Source: a virus
Lineage: Duplodnaviria; Heunggongvirae; Uroviricota; Caudoviricetes
IMG/VR virus record: IMGVR_UViG_2579778842_000017
Location: 5,703 to 69,702 of that record
DNA: 64,000 nucleotides
Direction: 5' to 3' (one strand)
Each line of letters begins with the position of its first letter. Within the stretch, counting starts at the first letter, position 1. The translations under genes were made by a program, and so were the position numbers. Below, piece by piece: positions 5,460 to 58,649 of the stretch. The notes below the pieces were generated by a model. The model was not told the origin of the DNA and did not search any database. It saw nothing but the letters and a program-made list of their open reading frames with translations.

Positions 5460-6113
5460 TTAAAAAAGTGAACCAAGAAGACCGACGCCAGCACCAATTG
5501 CTGTACCCCAACCAGGCATGATTGCAGTACCTGCAGCTGCACCTGCTGCCGCTCCACCCAAGGCGCTCTGAAATCCTGATGGTTTATTCGCATTAGCCGC
5601 AGATGCTGCCGCCTGCTGTTGATACAATTGGCTGACGTTGTTGGCATAGTTCTGCCCGGCGTTTGCCTGACCTGTAAGAGCGCCAAGGCCGATATTTGCC
5701 AGATTGTTGTAGTTGTTCATCTGACCTGACAGCCAGTTTTGACCGAGTGTAGGTGCGATTGCTGCTAACTGGTTTCCTGTTGCTGTAGAGCCTAATCCAC
5801 CCGTTGCCTCTGCTGCTGCCAGACTCTGGTAACGCGCCTGCCCTGCAAGGTCTTTGTACTGCTGGGAGTTGTAATACTGGTTAAGCGCCTGACCTTGCCC
5901 CTGAAGAGAGGAAAGATTTTGCAACTGTGATACGTACTGCTGAGCGAGTGGCGTGAACGGTGCAAGGTTCTGCATGTTCGTCTGCCACATTTCACGCTGC
6001 AGTTCGATACCTTTTTCAGTTGCGCGTGCCTGGGCTTTTGAACCGCCATCACTGCCACCTTTGCAGTAAACAGCTTTGCTGAGGTGCTTATTGGCAATCT
6101 GGAAAATTAACAT
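5460..6113 (-). CDS. ejection protein, P22 gp7-like
   Basis: 217 aa, Gln/Ala/Gly-rich, position and size match gp7 (~229 aa). Confidence 0.6.
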   Translation of the reverse strand: MLIFQIANKHLSKAVYCKGGSDGGSKAQARATEKGIELQREMWQTNMQNLAPFTPLAQQYVSQLQNLSSLQGQGQALNQYYNSQQYKDLAGQARYQSLAAAEATGGLGSTATGNQLAAIAPTLGQNWLSGQMNNYNNLANIGLGALTGQANAGQNYANNVSQLYQQQAAASAANANKPSGFQSALGGAAAGAAAGTAIMPGWGTAIGAGVGLLGSLF

Positions 6114-36399: not shown

Positions 36400-36440
36400 G
36401 AGTAGATTATGCATGATGAATTTGATGGGTTTTGAATACT

Positions 36441-36466
36441 GCCGCCAACTATGGCGGCTTTATTTT
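36441..36466 (+). terminator. intrinsic terminator between early-left operon and terS-B
   Basis: GCCGCC-AACTAT-GGCGGC hairpin followed by TTTATTTT. Confidence 0.55.
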
Positions 36467-36473
36467 GCATGGT

Positions 36474-36502
36474 ACTATTACCACAACGGTAACTATTACC
36501 AC
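36474..36502 (+). repeat. 11-bp direct repeat ACTATTACCAC x2 upstream of terS-B
   Basis: Copies at 36474 and 36492; second embedded in GGTAA-CTA-TTACC. Confidence 0.35.
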
Positions 36503-36509
36503 GGTGGTT

Positions 36510-37106
36510 ATGATGCCTGCTGAACCTAAAACCTATAAACGCAAATCAACGCAATTTAAGCCACTAACAGCAATGCAGGAGGCTTATTGCCAGTCATACA
36601 TCAAAACGCCTGAAAACCAGACTCAGGCAGCGATTAACGCAGGATTCTCCCCAAATACAGCGGCAGTTAAAGCCAGTGTCATGATGCGCGATGAACGCAT
36701 TCAAAAACGGATTGCCGAGCTGATGGAGGAGCGCAACAAACGAATGCGCGTCAGTGCTGATTACGTTCTCATGCGCCTGGTGGAGATCGACCAGATGGAC
36801 GTGATTGATATCCTCAACGACGATGGGAGTCTTAAGCCAATCCGCGAGTGGCCGAAAATCTGGCGCACTACGCTTAGTGGCTTTGATCTGTCATCGACCA
36901 TCATGAACATGAACGAGGATTCGATAGAGACAATCCTCAAAAAAATTAAATGGCCTGACAAGATGAAGAACCTCGAACTGATTGGTAAGCACGTCGACGT
37001 TAACGCGTTCAAAGAGCGCCTGGAGGTTTCCGGCACGGTCACCATCGCCGACCGCATGGCCGCCGCCCGGCGCCGCGTCATAGAGCAGGCTGGTGGTGAA
37101 GAATGA
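36510..37106 (+). CDS. terminase small subunit (module B)
   Basis: Start refined to MMPAEPK... downstream of the terminator (track ORF from 36432); directly precedes terminase large subunit. Confidence 0.65.
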   Translation: MMPAEPKTYKRKSTQFKPLTAMQEAYCQSYIKTPENQTQAAINAGFSPNTAAVKASVMMRDERIQKRIAELMEERNKRMRVSADYVLMRLVEIDQMDVIDILNDDGSLKPIREWPKIWRTTLSGFDLSSTIMNMNEDSIETILKKIKWPDKMKNLELIGKHVDVNAFKERLEVSGTVTIADRMAAARRRVIEQAGGEE

Positions 37107-38578
37107 CAGCCGCAGCCATGTCGCCGGAAGAGCAACTCGTCGAGGATATCGCCTCGTTCACGTATGACCCGCTGGGCTATGCGCTGTATGCGTTTCCGTG
37201 GGGCGAGGAAGGCACAGAGCTGGCGCACGCCACCGGTCCGCGTAAGTGGCAGGCAGACGCATTCCGCGAGATACGCGATCACCTGCAGAACCCGGCGACG
37301 CGTCACCAGCCGTTGATGCTGGCCCGCGCATCCGGCCACGGCATCGGCAAGTCAGCTTTCATCTCAATGCTGATTAACTGGGGCATGTCCACTTGCGAGG
37401 ATTGTAAGGTCGTGGTGACCGCCAACACCGACAACCAGCTACGAACGAAGACCTGGCCGGAAATTATCAAGTGGTCGAACCTTGCTATCACGAAAGACTG
37501 GTTTACCTGTACCGCTACCGCGATGTACAGCAATGACCCTGGGCACGACAAGCGGTGGCGAGCTGACGCAATCCCCTGGTCTGAGCACAACACTGAGGCA
37601 TTCGCCGGATTACACAATGAGCGCAAACGCATCATCGTGGTATTCGATGAAGCGTCGAACATTGCGGATCTGGTGTGGGAAGTTGCTGAGGGTGCGCTTA
37701 CGGACGAAGACACTGAGATTATCTGGGTGGCGTTCGGAAACCCGACACGTAACACCGGGCGTTTCCGCGAATGTTTCCGCAAATATAAACACCGCTGGAA
37801 AACTGCACAGATTGACAGCCGGACGGTGGAAGGTACTAACAAGCAGCAATTACAGAAATGGGTTGATGACTACGGGGAAGACAGCGACTTCGTTAAAGTC
37901 CGTGTGCGCGGCATATTTCCTGATGCATCTGAATTGCAGTTTATCCCTACCGGTCTTACTGACGAGGCAATGAAACGGGTGGTAACTGCTGCGCAGGTGG
38001 CACATGCTCCGGTGATAATCGGCGTTGACCCGGCATACTCCGGCGTTGATGACGCTGTGATATACCTGCGGCAGGGGCTGCACAGTAAGGTGCTGTGGAC
38101 TGGCAACAAGACCACTGACGATCTGATAATGGCGAAGCGTATCGCTGACTTTGAAGACCAGTACCAGGCTGACGCAGTGTTCATCGACTTCGGTTACGGA
38201 ACCGGTCTGAAATCAATCGGTGACGGATGGGGTCGTACATGGCAACTTGTTCCGTTCGGTGGCGCGTCTACTGACCCGCAGATGCTCAACAAGCGTGGGG
38301 AGATGTTCAACTCATGCAAGACATGGCTGAGGCTGGGCGGCATGCTGGATGACCAGGAAACAGCGGACGACCTGTCTGCGGCAGAGTACAAAGTTCGAGT
38401 GGACGGTAAAATCGTTATCGAACCGAAGGAAGATATCAAGGAGCGGCTTGGGCGTTCGCCTGGTAAAGGCGATGCGCTACTGCTGACGTTTGCTTTCCCG
38501 GTGTCAAAGCGCCTGCGACTTCCCGGGCAGCAGAACCAGCAAGGCAAGGCCATCACAGATTACGATCCCTATGCTTAA
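37103..38578 (+). CDS. terminase large subunit (module B)
   Basis: 491 aa; Walker A-like ASGHGIGKS, ATPase and nuclease halves. Confidence 0.85.
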   Translation: MTAAAMSPEEQLVEDIASFTYDPLGYALYAFPWGEEGTELAHATGPRKWQADAFREIRDHLQNPATRHQPLMLARASGHGIGKSAFISMLINWGMSTCEDCKVVVTANTDNQLRTKTWPEIIKWSNLAITKDWFTCTATAMYSNDPGHDKRWRADAIPWSEHNTEAFAGLHNERKRIIVVFDEASNIADLVWEVAEGALTDEDTEIIWVAFGNPTRNTGRFRECFRKYKHRWKTAQIDSRTVEGTNKQQLQKWVDDYGEDSDFVKVRVRGIFPDASELQFIPTGLTDEAMKRVVTAAQVAHAPVIIGVDPAYSGVDDAVIYLRQGLHSKVLWTGNKTTDDLIMAKRIADFEDQYQADAVFIDFGYGTGLKSIGDGWGRTWQLVPFGGASTDPQMLNKRGEMFNSCKTWLRLGGMLDDQETADDLSAAEYKVRVDGKIVIEPKEDIKERLGRSPGKGDALLLTFAFPVSKRLRLPGQQNQQGKAITDYDPYA

Positions 38579-38668
38579 TCCGCTTGAGGGGATAATGTCG
38601 TTGATATCCTCTGATGAGGATAAAACAAAGCCAGCTCATAGGCTGGCTGTTTGTGATATGTCACGGTG

Positions 38669-39040
38669 TTATTGCTCGCTTAACTTCTGCTTCAGCAAGT
38701 AACCTTCAAGCATCCAGATTTTGTTTACAGCATTCTGTCGGGCAATCTTCCGACCAATTTCTGCATCAAAGTTTTCCGGGCTTGCACAGGCGCTCTCTCC
38801 GGTGACGGTGAAGCCGTTGCGCAGCACCAGGACGCAGAACGTCAGCAGAGAAAGTGATTCGTGCGGCTGGTAGTTTACCTCTCCGCCAGTATGTTTCGCT
38901 TTTATGGCTACGCCAAAGGCACCATCTTCTGCTGTGAAATATGCCTCCTGAGCAATAATGCTCTCGATATGGTCTGGCGTAACGCGCGGCGCGGCTAAAC
39001 CTTTAGCCTGAATTTCAGATTCAATGTCTTTGTCACTCAT
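38669..39040 (-). CDS. hypothetical protein (antisense to module B late genes)
   Basis: 123 aa on the opposite strand between terL-B and the tRNA. Confidence 0.5.
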   Translation of the reverse strand: MSDKDIESEIQAKGLAAPRVTPDHIESIIAQEAYFTAEDGAFGVAIKAKHTGGEVNYQPHESLSLLTFCVLVLRNGFTVTGESACASPENFDAEIGRKIARQNAVNKIWMLEGYLLKQKLSEQ

Positions 39041-39241
39041 AGTCTAATCTCACCTTAAAAATGCCCGGCGAACCGGGCGAACTGGAAGCAATGAGTTATG
39101 CCTTCCGTGGCTGTACGGGTTTACAGCATGAAGTCATCGCAATGGCGTCCTGCTGTAAAAAGGGCGGTGATAGTCCTTCAAGGGAAACCATCACCGCCAA
39201 GCCCCTGGAACTTCTGGCATCACGGTCCTTAGGCGTGATTC

Positions 39242-39318
39242 TGGCGTGGCATGCAGGATTCGAACCTGCGACCAACCGCTTAGAAGGCGGTTGCTCTGTC
39301 CGACTGAGCTAATGCCAC
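39242..39318 (-). tRNA. tRNA-Arg (anticodon UCU)
   Basis: 77-nt cloverleaf folded by hand: 7-bp acceptor stem, T-loop TTCGAAT, anticodon loop CTTCTAA, 3' CCA encoded; differs from E. coli argU in the acceptor stem. Confidence 0.9.
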
Positions 39319-39640
39319 AACGCTGAGAGCACTTAGCCTGTTAAGGCACCACACTTTGTCGCGGCTCCATAAATGCTCTCATCGTTGTACCCTCGTCTCT
39401 TCCGAGGCGTCACACCGAATCGCCGGGATGGTGAATCCCCGTGCGCGGCATAAAACCGCTCGACTTGCACATTCCGGCTACCTGGTTCGTTTGCCCGAGC
39501 AAGGGAGGGTGCCCCTTAAACGTATCCAGACCGCTATCGGCGCATGTGCCATACGCCGTACTGCTCAAAATAAAAGCTCACTCCACCTGTTCAATTTAAC
39601 GACAAGCCAGTCAGGTTAATAACAGGAATGCACTCTATGC

Positions 39641-39655
39641 TTACCTGAAAGGTAA
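39641..39655. promoter_or_regulatory. operator-like palindrome TTACC-TGAAA-GGTAA (site 2 of 5)
   Basis: Exact match about 90 nt upstream of the 39746 ORF and portal; flanks resemble site 5. Confidence 0.4.
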
Positions 39656-39745
39656 TAATTCGTGCGTTAAATGTCAACTACCTACGATAAATAAATCATA
39701 TGTGGTTAAATTGGTAATAATTTAATTGCGTACGGAGTCATTGAT

Positions 39746-39952
39746 ATGTGCATGGGTAGCTCACCATCAGTGCCTGCAACACCAGAAGTTCAGGCAGCAC
39801 CACAGGAGCAGGATGCCGCCGTTGTTGATGCCCGCGACGAAGAAACTCGTCGCCGTCGCGCTGCTGCTGGTCGTAGTTCTACGCTGCTTACCGGTTCTCA
39901 GGGCGACACATCAACCGCTAATACCAGCGGTAAAACGCTGCTTGGTCAGTAA
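39746..39952 (+). CDS. small hypothetical protein preceding portal B
   Basis: 68 aa; GGAG ribosome-binding site; the 12 nt before its ATG (CGGAGTCATTGA) recur before the portal ATG. Confidence 0.35.
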   Translation: MCMGSSPSVPATPEVQAAPQEQDAAVVDARDEETRRRRAAAGRSSTLLTGSQGDTSTANTSGKTLLGQ

Positions 39953-39966
39953 CCGGAGTCATTGAA

Positions 39967-41646
39967 ATGGCGGAAACAACTAAAGAGCGATTGAACAAAC
40001 AGTTCGCACAACTTGAAAGCGAGCGTCAGTCGTTCGAGCCGCACTGGCGCGAGTTGAGTGATTACATCAACCCGCGTGGTTCCCGCTTTCTGACTTCTGA
40101 GGTCAACCGTAACGATCGACGCAATACACGCATTATTGATTCGACCGGGACTATGGCGGCGCGCACTCTCGCCAGCGGCATGATGTCAGGCATCACAAGC
40201 CCCGCGCGTCCGTGGTTTCGCCTGGCTACGCCAGATCCTGAAATGATGGATTATGGCCCTGTTAAGTTGTGGCTTGAGGCGGTGCAGAACCGCATGAACG
40301 ATATGTTCAATAAGTCGAATCTCTATCAGTCGCTGCCGCAGTTATACGGAAGCCTCGGCACATACAGCACTGGTGCAATGGCAGTGCTGGAGGATGACGA
40401 GGACATCATTCGCACAATGCCATTCACGATAGGCAGTTACTACCTGGCTAACTCACCTCGTGGCAGTGTGGACACCTGTTTTCGCAAGTTCTCTATGACT
40501 GTTCGTCAGCTTGTTCAGGAGTTCGGGCTAAATAACGTCAGCGAATCCGTAAAAAGCATGTGGGAAAGCGGCACCTACGAGAAGTGGATTGAAGTGATGC
40601 ATTCGGTTTACCCGAACATTGACCGCGATACATCGAAGCTGGATAGCAAGAACAAGCCATTCAAATCGGTTTATTACGAGGTTGGTGGCGATAACGACAA
40701 GTTGTTGCGTGAGTCCGGATTCGATGAGTTTCCAATTATGGCTCCGCGCTGGGAAGTTAACGGCGAAGATGTTTATGGATCATCATGCCCGGGCATGCTG
40801 GCGCTTGGACCTGTTAAGGCATTGCAGCTTCTCCAGAAGCGCAAGTCGCAGTTGATTGATAAAGCCACCAATCCGCCGATGGTTGCTCCGATTTCCCTCA
40901 AGAATCAGCGTGCCTCCCTTCTTCCTGGCGACATCACGTATATCGATCAGATTACTGGTCAGGATGGTTTCAGGCCTGCTTATCTGGTTAACCCCAGTAC
41001 AGCAGATTTGGTGGCAGACATTCAGGACACTCGTCAAATCATTAACAGCGCCTACTTTGTCGATCTGTTCATGATGTTGCAGAACATCAATACCCGCTCG
41101 ATGCCTGTTGAAGCGGTGATCGAAATGAAAGAAGAAAAACTTCTGATGTTGGGGCCGGTTCTGGAGCGTCTGAACGACGAATGTCTTAATCCTCTCATTG
41201 ACCGCGCTTTCTCGATGATGGTGCGTAAAAACATGTTGCCGCCACCGCCTGACGCGATGGAAGGCATGCCCCTGAAGGTCGAATACATTTCCGTCATGGC
41301 TCAGGCGCAGAAGTCTATCGGCCTGTCCAGTCTGGCGTCCACGGTTAACTTCATTGGTCAACTTGCGCAAGCGAAACCAGAAGCTCTCGACAAACTCAAC
41401 GTTGATCAGGCGATCGATGCATTCGCTGATATGTCCGGAGTGTCTCCAACCGTCATTGTTCCGCAGGAACAGGTTGAGCAGGCTCGCCAGCAACGGGCAC
41501 AGCAACAACAGCAGCAACAAATGATGGCCATGGGGATGGCGGCGGCACAGGGTGCCAAGACGCTAAGCGAAGCTAAAACTTCGGATCCGAGTGTTTTGTC
41601 AGCTATGGCGAATGCAGTTAGTGGTCAGGGTGGGCAATCACAATGA
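39967..41646 (+). CDS. portal protein (module B)
   Basis: 559 aa following terminase; size compatible with T7 gp8-type portals. Confidence 0.75.
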   Translation: MAETTKERLNKQFAQLESERQSFEPHWRELSDYINPRGSRFLTSEVNRNDRRNTRIIDSTGTMAARTLASGMMSGITSPARPWFRLATPDPEMMDYGPVKLWLEAVQNRMNDMFNKSNLYQSLPQLYGSLGTYSTGAMAVLEDDEDIIRTMPFTIGSYYLANSPRGSVDTCFRKFSMTVRQLVQEFGLNNVSESVKSMWESGTYEKWIEVMHSVYPNIDRDTSKLDSKNKPFKSVYYEVGGDNDKLLRESGFDEFPIMAPRWEVNGEDVYGSSCPGMLALGPVKALQLLQKRKSQLIDKATNPPMVAPISLKNQRASLLPGDITYIDQITGQDGFRPAYLVNPSTADLVADIQDTRQIINSAYFVDLFMMLQNINTRSMPVEAVIEMKEEKLLMLGPVLERLNDECLNPLIDRAFSMMVRKNMLPPPPDAMEGMPLKVEYISVMAQAQKSIGLSSLASTVNFIGQLAQAKPEALDKLNVDQAIDAFADMSGVSPTVIVPQEQVEQARQQRAQQQQQQQMMAMGMAAAQGAKTLSEAKTSDPSVLSAMANAVSGQGGQSQ

Positions 41647-57070: not shown

Positions 57071-57082
57071 ATCGCGCCTCCT

Positions 57083-57097
57083 TTACCTTTAAGGTAA
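57083..57097. promoter_or_regulatory. operator-like palindrome TTACC-TTTAA-GGTAA (site 3 of 5) at a promoter
   Basis: Minus strand reads TTGCAG-17 nt-TACTAT then TTACCTTTAAGGTAA and AAGGAGG before the 55-aa ORF. Confidence 0.5.
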
Positions 57098-57170
57098 TAG
57101 TACGCTATTCACCCACAGTCTGCAATCTGTACAGAATTATTTAAAGGCACATCCCTGTGCCGCCGTTCTG

Positions 57171-57881: not shown

Positions 57882-58036
57882 GGTGGTTATCTCCACTTAG
57901 TGATTTTAATCACCACCGCAACGCCAATTACTGGTGGTGAACTGGACAAGGTTGGCGTACCGGCCTAAGTGGTACCGGCGTCCTTTCGGACCCCTGCCCA
58001 GCCCACCATAATTCGGATATGGCTGTGCTTAACGCA

Positions 58037-58059
58037 TAAAAAAACCACGTCTGGCGTGG
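58037..58059 (-). terminator. terminator-like hairpin with U-run
   Basis: Minus strand: CCACGCCAGACGTGG followed by TTTTTTT. Confidence 0.4.
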
Positions 58060-58150
58060 TATGCGCCACTTAGTAACTCGGGACGCCAATCCCGGCACTG
58101 GATTTTTCCAGTGCCCGATTACTATGGCACAAGAGGAGTGCGATGTAAAT

Positions 58151-58165
58151 TTACCGCAAAGGTAA
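58151..58165. promoter_or_regulatory. operator-like palindrome TTACC-GCAAA-GGTAA (site 4 of 5)
   Basis: Nested inside inverted repeat GGAGTGC...GCACTCC (58135..58178); minus-strand context TTGCAA-18 nt-TATATT then TTACC. Confidence 0.4.
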
Positions 58166-58196
58166 ATATAAGCACTCCACTTGGTAATTGCAAACC

Positions 58197-58491: not shown

Positions 58492-58530
58492 TATCAAATA
58501 ATTTATTTGCTATCCAGCACGTTTTGCGAA

Positions 58531-58545
58531 TCACCTGAAAGGTAA
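58531..58545. promoter_or_regulatory. operator-like palindrome TCACC-TGAAA-GGTAA (site 5 of 5, one mismatch)
   Basis: About 105 nt upstream of the tail fibre gene; flanks resemble site 2. Confidence 0.35.
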
Positions 58546-58649
58546 TATCTGTTCGTATTTATGGGTTGTCTATCCATATATGGTTTTTCAGGTAATAGAA
58601 TAACCGGATATGCGGCGCAACGGGTGCTGCGACTATCTGGAGATTTAAC

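Follow-up and report, generated by a model that had tools for sequence, protein, structure and literature searches.

A conserved pseudoknotted RNA module beside a phage-borne tRNA-Arg(UCU) gene in temperate phages of Enterobacterales

The stretch of DNA analysed here (64,000 nt, hereafter the window; positions 5,703–69,702 of the IMG/VR virus record IMGVR_UViG_2579778842_000017) covers the region of a phiV10/epsilon15-like (Uetakevirus) prophage that is 99.9% identical to Escherichia coli UMNK88 and 98.5% identical to phage phiV10. A gene for tRNA-Arg(UCU) lies on the minus strand between the terminase and portal genes. The initial annotation, made without database searches, left about 320 nt upstream of this tRNA unexplained and suggested that the segment might be a leader, a small RNA, or a decayed second tRNA. 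What, then, does the sequence beside the tRNA specify? The segment was found to contain, on the same strand as the tRNA, a non-coding RNA that has a conserved, pseudoknotted fold and is absent from Rfam 15. What had been overlooked is that this element represents a widespread family, is independent of the tRNA, and extends past the tRNA to a conserved terminator. The tRNA itself is genuine, already known, and ordinary.

A conserved pseudoknotted RNA on the tRNA strand

Homologues of the segment were gathered from IMG/VR with two independent anchors and reduced to 28, and later to 82, distinct sequences for a covariance model (R1). In the window, R1 detected a single copy of the core structured RNA (approximately 177 nt; 39385–39561, minus strand) with 148 bits (E = 8e-41), and no second core copy was found elsewhere in the prophage. 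Read from the 5′ end on the minus strand, the core begins with a local hairpin, helix P1 (39538–39558), followed by helix P2 (39481–39530), which encloses variable hairpins. Junction J, GUAGCCGGAAUGUGCAAG (39464–39481), leads to helix P3a (39443–39461), helix P4 with the loop UCACC (39425–39439), and helix P5, CCUCG-GAAGAGA-CGAGG (39391–39407). A helix P3 is also part of the model. The pseudoknot is formed by CACC in the P4 loop (39430–39433) and GGUG (39413–39416), which is located 9–10 nt beyond that loop.

The fold of the upstream segment as a single sequence is weak (z = −1.98), whereas the comparative evidence is strong. Standard pairs occupy 97.0% of the cells in the 82 distinct core sequences, compared with 89.9% after shuffling, and compensatory (two-sided) changes occur at 13 core pairs. 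The covariation score is 0.252, while the shuffled score is 0.124, with none of the 500 shuffles reaching the observed value; slid controls gave 0.03–0.06. The several hairpins noticed initially in the segment are consequently real and exceed the chance level. In addition, the core contains G-U pairs that are strand-specific (U9-G19 in 77 of 79 sequences; also 6-22, 46-99, and 146-161). Therefore, a plain DNA palindrome is ruled out. A protein-coding function is not indicated either: the 79 full-length homologues have no conserved reading frame (lengths modulo 3, 40/20/19; best frame open in 56%), which agrees with the early remark that 39319–39640 holds no plausible open reading frame (ORF).

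Alternative foldings were compared with this model. Instead of the local P1 hairpin, RNAalifold favoured a long-range helix (GCACAU:AUGUGC and others), which was rejected because no covariation was found beyond P2. Pair 8-20 of helix P1 covaries perfectly, and the invariance of the long-range helix derives partly from the search anchor; the long-range helix may possibly be an alternative conformer of the core. A hairpin GGUG-UGA-CRCC replacing the pseudoknot was also rejected, with no compensatory changes and at least 17 breaks, while pair 152-173 of the pseudoknot switches from C-G to A-U and is never broken.

The junction GGUAGCCGGAAUGUGCAAG is near-invariant in the core homologues, and the exact invariance of its 18-mer is partly an artefact of the anchor. 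In a collection anchored on P5, the exact 18-mer is present in 98 of 121 loci. The other 23 differ by 1–5 bases except for two loci without the 18-mer, which are 5′-truncated forms. Truncated forms of the core keep only the 3′ half (the end of J, P3a, P4, the pseudoknot, and P5) and begin approximately 12 nt past an operator-flanked promoter. P5-type hairpins are enriched about 300-fold at the element (0.96 versus 0.003 per kb) and are duplicated in 10 of 199 instances, occasionally together with the downstream helix P6.

Searches against Rfam 15 placed the core outside the known families. In the window (38600–39800, E≤10), only the tRNA and chance-level matches were obtained, and the same was true of the divergent homologues from SPN1S and mEp460 (E≤5). 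Membership of a known Rfam family was rejected on these gathering and permissive scans. The covariance searches that had been proposed as a check thus accepted the tRNA and found no Rfam family upstream of it. No description of the core 14–18-nt sequence was found in the literature searched, and an earlier description beyond that literature is possible. The papers on phages P1, phiV10, and ZX5 mention the tRNA only, not the element.

Distribution and architecture of the module

A BLAST search with 39319–39745 recovered the full stretch in Uetakeviruses of E. coli and copies with 70–78% identity in Uetakeviruses of Klebsiella, Enterobacter, and Salmonella. The 240 nt adjoining the tRNA (39319–39559) are present at approximately 83% identity in tRNA-less lambdoid phages such as cdtI, mEp460, 2H10, and Stx2c- and Stx2a-converting phages, and a 165-nt part is present at approximately 79% identity in non-mobilizable P1-like plasmids of approximately 95 kb. 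In phage P1, the element (71021–71203, 141 bits) lies within the ban operon, which is repressed by C1, with trnI on one side and ban on the other. Matches occur in 1840 of 5426 complete E. coli genomes (about a third), and the element is annotated in none of the records examined. Every match examined stood in a prophage, phage, or P1-like plasmid context, so that a match to ordinary host intergenic sequence, named initially as a refutation, was not seen. Among species-level genomes, there are 23 true matches, all in Enterobacterales, and the 4 chance matches elsewhere fail the covariance model.

Three unrelated groups of temperate phages carry the core at equivalent positions. When sorted by context, 220 loci comprise 102 lambdoid loci (preceded on the same strand by a cI-like gene), 90 Uetake-like loci, 15 P1-like loci, and 13 others; one of the latter is directly downstream of a CI-type helix-turn-helix repressor gene, and another precedes a Tad2-like gene. 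In Uetakeviruses, the core is antisense between the portal and terminase genes. The lambdoid carriers lack an N-like gene beside PL, and the core follows their cI gene immediately behind PL, in the leader of the early-left operon. The order in cdtI is the cI stop codon, the cI terminator, TTGACA-17-CATAAT with a palindromic operator, approximately 50 nt, and the element, all on the cI strand. No protein gene is common to the Uetakevirus, lambdoid, and P1 groups. The ban operon of phage P1 is unusually rich in RNA features; it also carries an annotated "dicF-like region" (NC_005856, 68791–68892) and three tRNAs upstream of the element.

In the window, the bounds of the 320-nt segment proved to be wrong, although a conserved RNA does lie within it: the conserved module is approximately 480 nt long and runs from about 39630 through the tRNA to a terminator-like hairpin, T1, at 39157. 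Its order is an operator-overlapped promoter-like site, a leader hairpin, the core, helix P6, a tRNA slot, hairpin P7, T1, a second terminator-like hairpin T2, and a Gp49-family gene. P6 (39318–39387, minus strand) is a long helix, CAACGAUGAGAGCA ... UGCUCUCAGCGUUG, that encloses a variable apex, and its last base in the window is G1 of the tRNA. Among 74 arm pairs, the 15–17 bp of P6 are kept through multiple compensatory changes (GAGAGCA/UGCUCUC, GAUGACU/AGUCAUC, and AAAGGCG/CGCCGUUU), and the mean duplex energy is −15.7 kcal/mol, compared with −12.1 kcal/mol for arms permuted between loci.

The slot after P6 is closed by GUGG...CCAC. It is filled by tRNA-Arg in the window, SPN1S, and Klebsiella phages, and elsewhere by a tRNA-shaped domain ending in CACCAC-A-CCA or by other inserts. 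At four tRNA-less loci (L008, L010, L012, and L013), a tRNA-shaped domain GUGGUGA...UCACCAC-A-CCA stands between P6 and P7, and in SPN1S and Stx2a_1447, T-loop-like hairpins (GGUUCAAUUCC and GUUCGAUUC) are located inside the P6 apex. None of these domains and hairpins was called a tRNA by ARAGORN or Rfam. P7 (39219–39239, minus strand), AUCACG-CCUAAGGAC-CGUGAU, directly follows the CCA of the tRNA. As judged by eye, Uetake-like and lambdoid loci keep this hairpin behind the tRNA or tRNA-like slot, in some cases in variant form (for example, AUCGC..GCGAU).

T1 (39157–39198, minus strand) was found by a terminator scan as an intrinsic-terminator-like hairpin, GGCGGUGAUGG...CUAUCACCGCC, followed by CUUUUU. 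Its sequence is conserved across phage families (GGCGGU...ACCGCC-CUUUUUACA), and its inner stem covaries. Among non-redundant loci, T1-type hairpins are present behind the core in 78 of 83 Uetake-like, 64 of 92 lambdoid, and 0 of 10 P1-like cases. A strong terminator-like hairpin is located within 1 kb downstream of the core in 165 of 199 non-redundant instances, compared with 33 of 181 for the opposite strand of that stretch and 7 of 127 at 2–3 kb further on. The loop motif UCCCUUGA of T1 and P2 was considered as a common binding site, and this idea is weakened by a natural variant (IMG/VR locus L172) in which the T1 apex is the exact reverse complement of that in the window, so that the hairpin is kept and the loop is changed. 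Downstream of T1, a further hairpin seen in the sequence, UUUACAGCA...UGCUGUAAA (39120–39159, minus strand), uses the T1 U-tract as its 5′ arm and is kept in Uetakeviruses, including epsilon15. T2 (39057–39078, minus strand), GCCCGGUUCGCCGGGC followed by AUUUUU, was also found by the terminator scan; it abuts the Shine-Dalgarno sequence of the cargo gene and is present in most Uetake-like loci.

The cargo coding sequence behind T1 and T2 (38669–39040, minus strand) encodes a 123-residue protein of the Phage_gp49_66 family (Pfam PF13876, E = 2.4e-35), which is named "Gp49 family protein" in RefSeq. This position varies, with a Tad2-like gene in a Klebsiella phage and DUF551 and other genes in Tyrion. 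The region behind the element is a variable accessory-gene hot spot (locus L009, 1635–2156; L105, 6003–6578; L012, 1053–1934). Tad2-like (Thoeris anti-defence 2-like) genes were seen there twice, in different phage backgrounds, along with DUF551 and unknown genes.

At the upstream end, a minus-strand promoter-like site (39649–39677) is suggested by the sequence, with the −35 element TTGACA (39672–39677), a 17-nt spacer, and a weak −10 element, TACCTT (39649–39654). The TTGACA and its spacing are kept in Uetakeviruses of Klebsiella, Enterobacter, and Salmonella. The operator-like palindrome recognised initially, CTTACCTGAAAGGTAAT (39640–39656), overlaps the −10/+1 region of this site. Its motif, ATTACC-N5-GGTAAT, occurs at 12 sites in the window, compared with 1.5 expected, including sites at 57082, 58150, and 58530 in the immunity region, and the epsilon15 record labels the homologous site as repressor-binding. 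As copies of (T)ATTACC-N5-GGTAA(T), these three span 57082–57098, 58150–58166, and 58530–58546; two further copies are in tandem at the terS start (36477–36511), and the 58.5-kb site has TATTACCTTTCAGGT in common with the site at 39640–39656. Between the promoter-like site and the core, a leader hairpin (39579–39630, minus strand; CCUGUU/AACAGG and flanks) is seen in the sequence. The homologous hairpin of epsilon15 is longer and is annotated as an RNase III site.

A natural deletion is found in epsilon15 (NC_004775, 1433–1537), in which the tRNA and most of the element are lost. The deleted stretch is flanked by two copies of GTT(T)CCCTTGATGCT, one from the P2 loop and the other from the T1 loop, and helix P1 is left fused to T1.

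Possible functions of the module

Of the three origins suggested initially for the segment, leader and small RNA are supported by the conserved fold on the tRNA strand below an operator-overlapped promoter-like site. The decayed second tRNA is not supported in the window: there is no tRNA signal in the segment at E≤10, ARAGORN called none, and the element is also present in tRNA-less lambdoid phages. The module appears to be a structured early-operon leader RNA of temperate phages, and there is a substantial chance that it represents a new class.

We tentatively propose, with somewhat less than even confidence, that the core works in cis as an antitermination leader of the put type for early or accessory operons under repressor control. 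Like the HK022 put RNA, the core RNA would act on the very RNA polymerase that transcribes it. Transcripts begun at the repressor-controlled promoter would then pass T1 and T2 and express the early or accessory genes, whereas transcripts from other starts would stop at these terminators. Transcription modified by the core may also escape Rho on the long, untranslated, tRNA-containing leader. The tRNA would be a passenger in the slot, decoding AGA in the AGA-rich early and tail genes, and its processing by RNase P and at the 3′ end would cut the leader from the downstream RNA. The put RNA is approximately 70 nt long, is located just after PL, binds the β′ zinc-binding domain, and works over more than 10 kb without tethering (PMC9378689). 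Therefore, an activity of this kind would tolerate the variable inserts of 0.2–0.9 kb and the processing of the tRNA. The same inserts lie between the core and T1, and because of them a riboswitch-type attenuator of T1 was rejected as implausible.

The comparison with HK022 putL/putR and the putL-like site of HK639, which are cis-acting, factor-independent processive antitermination RNAs, has two sides. The element is likewise a structured RNA in the leader of an early operon, with a repressor-controlled promoter before it and terminators behind it, and as in the N-less lambdoid phages with put, no dedicated protein gene stands alongside. HK639 also has a single copy, in the left operon. The base of put stem I matches the base of helix P1 (A-CGGCG...CAUG-CGUCG), by eye only. 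However, put has two stems, whereas the core of approximately 155–185 nt has P2–P5 and a pseudoknot; the element extends into P6, the tRNA slot, P7, and T1; and it is also found in the non-lambdoid Uetakevirus group and in phage P1. Homology to put was rejected on the negative covariance-model and nhmmer results, and the common ACGGCG..CAUGCGUCG is kept as a lead only.

Several observations weigh against an antitermination role, which we infer purely from position. R1 gave no match in the 24–31 kb region of HK022 or in the HK639 genome, and an nhmmer profile gave only E>1 at putL, so that similarity to put is statistically undetectable; moreover, the core is 2–3 times larger than put and differs in architecture. 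There is one copy of the element per phage and none after PR, as in mEp460. The P1-like loci have neither T1 nor another strong terminator behind the element (0 of 10). T1 is conserved in sequence, which a generic processive antiterminator would not require. A consensus promoter scan did not call the site at 39649–39677, the −10 element of which matches at 3 of 6 positions. In addition, epsilon15 is viable with the element deleted, and the trnI-ban region of phage P1 is non-essential (PMC10695390).

This dispensability for plaque formation, which is typical of accessory functions, would also suit another explanation, in which the module encodes a structured RNA that is processed, stable, and active in trans, an analogue of GOLLD and ROOL with a tRNA inside it. 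RNase P and RNase III would release the core from the primary transcript, T1 would simply be a terminator, and the freed RNA would, during early infection, bind a host or defence factor or sequester it. The complex pseudoknotted fold with long conserved unpaired stretches, the extent of the unit from a promoter to a conserved terminator, the fixed slot for a tRNA or tRNA-shaped domain right after a 15–17-bp helix, and the neighbouring cargo with anti-defence-type (Tad2-like) genes all agree with this idea, and GOLLD and ROOL are themselves phage-encoded RNAs with an elaborate fold, next to or enclosing tRNA genes. We nevertheless consider it unlikely. The core of phage P1 continues straight into the ban mRNA with no terminator, and in lambdoid phages the core is the leader of the entire early-left operon. 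Rfam searches related the element to neither GOLLD, ROOL, nor any other family, and it is smaller, restricted to Enterobacterales, and located in an mRNA leader rather than free-standing. Processing is also central to a further, rather improbable proposal, according to which the module is a scaffold for RNA maturation or stability: RNase III and RNase P, guided by the leader hairpin, P6, and the tRNA(-like) slot, would mature the tRNA; through these cleavages the downstream mRNAs (ban, early-left, and cargo) would obtain defined, protected ends, and the P7–T1 piece would perhaps be freed as a 3′-trailer small RNA. P6 ends exactly at G1 of the tRNA, the leader hairpin has the annotated RNase III site of epsilon15 as its homologue, and tRNA-less relatives retain an acceptor-like stem followed by N-CCA at the slot. 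The element adjoins tRNAs in two unrelated phage groups, and the C4 RNA of phages P1 and P7 is matured by RNase P. However, a pseudoknotted core of approximately 170 nt with near-invariant junctions is not needed for processing signals, minimal P4-pseudoknot-P5 forms exist with no P6 or slot nearby, and the 102 lambdoid loci carry the core without a called tRNA.

A leader position is shared with lambda nut (boxA and boxB, dependent on N and Nus factors) and the rrn boxA leaders, and the element might be a nut-like loading site for a phage or host antiterminator or RNA-binding regulator, with P5 as boxB and UGCUCUC/UGCUCUUU as boxA. P5 is a 5-bp GC stem with the loop GAAGAGA, similar to the GAAGA loop of lambda nutL boxB; the enrichment and duplication of P5-type hairpins at the element point in the same direction, as does the presence of UGCUCUU(U) in the P6 3′ arm in 103 of 155 variants. 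Even so, we regard this as quite improbable, and a boxA/boxB nut site was rejected. The boxA-like string forms part of the paired P6 helix, where an unrelated sequence (AGUCAUC or CGCCGUUU) takes its place in variants with compensating changes; it lies 3′ of the boxB-like P5, the reverse of the nut order; and the conserved RNA is much larger. In the lambdoid carriers, the commonest ORF clusters downstream of the element gave no match to an N-like PHROG, whereas the lambda N sequence, used as a positive control, matched phrog_271. The lack of a protein gene common to the three phage groups also argues against a nut-like site. A last alternative, that the locus is not an RNA feature but a DNA-level site (a recombination or module boundary, or a palindrome bound by protein), a gene for a small protein, or a decayed tRNA, is scarcely credible. 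GGCACATGYGCC within helix P1 is a near-perfect DNA palindrome, the element marks junctions with differing cargo, deletions and inversions map to its repeats, and ORFs are annotated across it in some phage records. However, this reading is largely refuted by the reading-frame and covariation results, with compensatory changes in five or six helices as well as the strand-specific G-U pairs, and no tRNA signal is present.

By position, the element is most like the put and nut leaders, and in the comparisons above it did not group with put, nut, GOLLD/ROOL, or any Rfam family. If the antitermination proposal is true, an undescribed early-operon regulatory RNA is present in a third of sequenced E. 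coli genomes and in phage P1. It would be a second, structurally different case of RNA-only control of transcription elongation, of which put is so far the only family, and it would explain early-left expression in lambdoid phages apparently without N. More broadly, the module might belong to an unrecognised class of large modular phage RNA, composed of a core, a long helix, a tRNA-accepting slot, and a dedicated terminator, and spread horizontally between Uetakevirus, N-less lambdoid phages, and phage P1. Without a dedicated protein, such an RNA would reprogramme RNA polymerase past terminators or, after its processing, disable a host factor or defence system in early infection. We hold this broader view to be possible and somewhat doubtful. 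Whatever the mechanism, a strongly covarying fold of approximately 170 nt in well-studied organisms is missing from Rfam, and the module is a hot spot for insertions of tRNA and accessory or anti-defence genes (Tad2-like and the Gp49/Sf6 gp66 family), which is useful for annotation and for finding new cargo.

The tRNA-Arg gene and its neighbourhood

The tRNA-Arg(UCU) gene (39242–39318, minus strand; CCA encoded) is the sole tRNA called by ARAGORN in the 64-kb window. The clean fold reported initially was confirmed by a score of 73.3 bits with the Rfam tRNA family (RF00005), compared with the gathering score of 29; the cloverleaf threshold is reached, and an intact acceptor stem, a discriminator G, and a 3′ CCA are all present. 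Compared with argU of E. coli K-12, 63 of 77 positions are identical. The difference in the acceptor stem that had been pointed out is real (GUGGCAU/AUGCCAC versus GCGCCCU/AGGGCGC in argU), and the anticodon stem differs as well. The gene is already annotated in RefSeq in hundreds of E. coli genomes. It has the features of other phage-borne argU-like tRNA-Arg(UCU) genes, namely a canonical cloverleaf, a UCU anticodon, an encoded CCA, and a temperate phage with AGA-rich early and tail genes, and it differs only in the acceptor and anticodon stems and in its placement inside an RNA module. In the RefSeq record of phiV10 (NC_007804, 2672–2923), a hypothetical coding sequence, PhiV10p04, is placed over the tRNA-Arg gene without a tRNA feature; this is probably a mis-annotation.

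The codon usage, which had been proposed as a check, was also examined. The early, accessory, and tail regions of the prophage use AGA at a frequency of 7–15 per 1000 codons. From the terminase genes to the capsid genes, this codon is nearly missing, with no AGA in 8 of the 10 ORFs scored between terS and approximately 44.8 kb. Therefore, a codon-supplement role of tRNA-Arg is plausible.

The local gene order agrees with the antisense placement of the tRNA described initially. On the plus strand, terS (36432–37106) and terL (37103–38578) are followed by a bidirectional terminator (approximately 38629–38648), and the gp3-like ORF (39746–39952) and the portal gene (39967–41646) lie on the other side, so that the tRNA is antisense to and between these genes, with the Gp49-family coding sequence downstream of it on the minus strand. 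The gap between the tRNA and the gp3-like ORF is approximately 427 nt. Elsewhere in the window, at 57930–58114 (minus strand), Rfam detected a C4 antisense RNA (66 bits) adjoining isrK (66 bits), which is an immI-like RNA module of the P1/P7 type in a Uetakevirus prophage.

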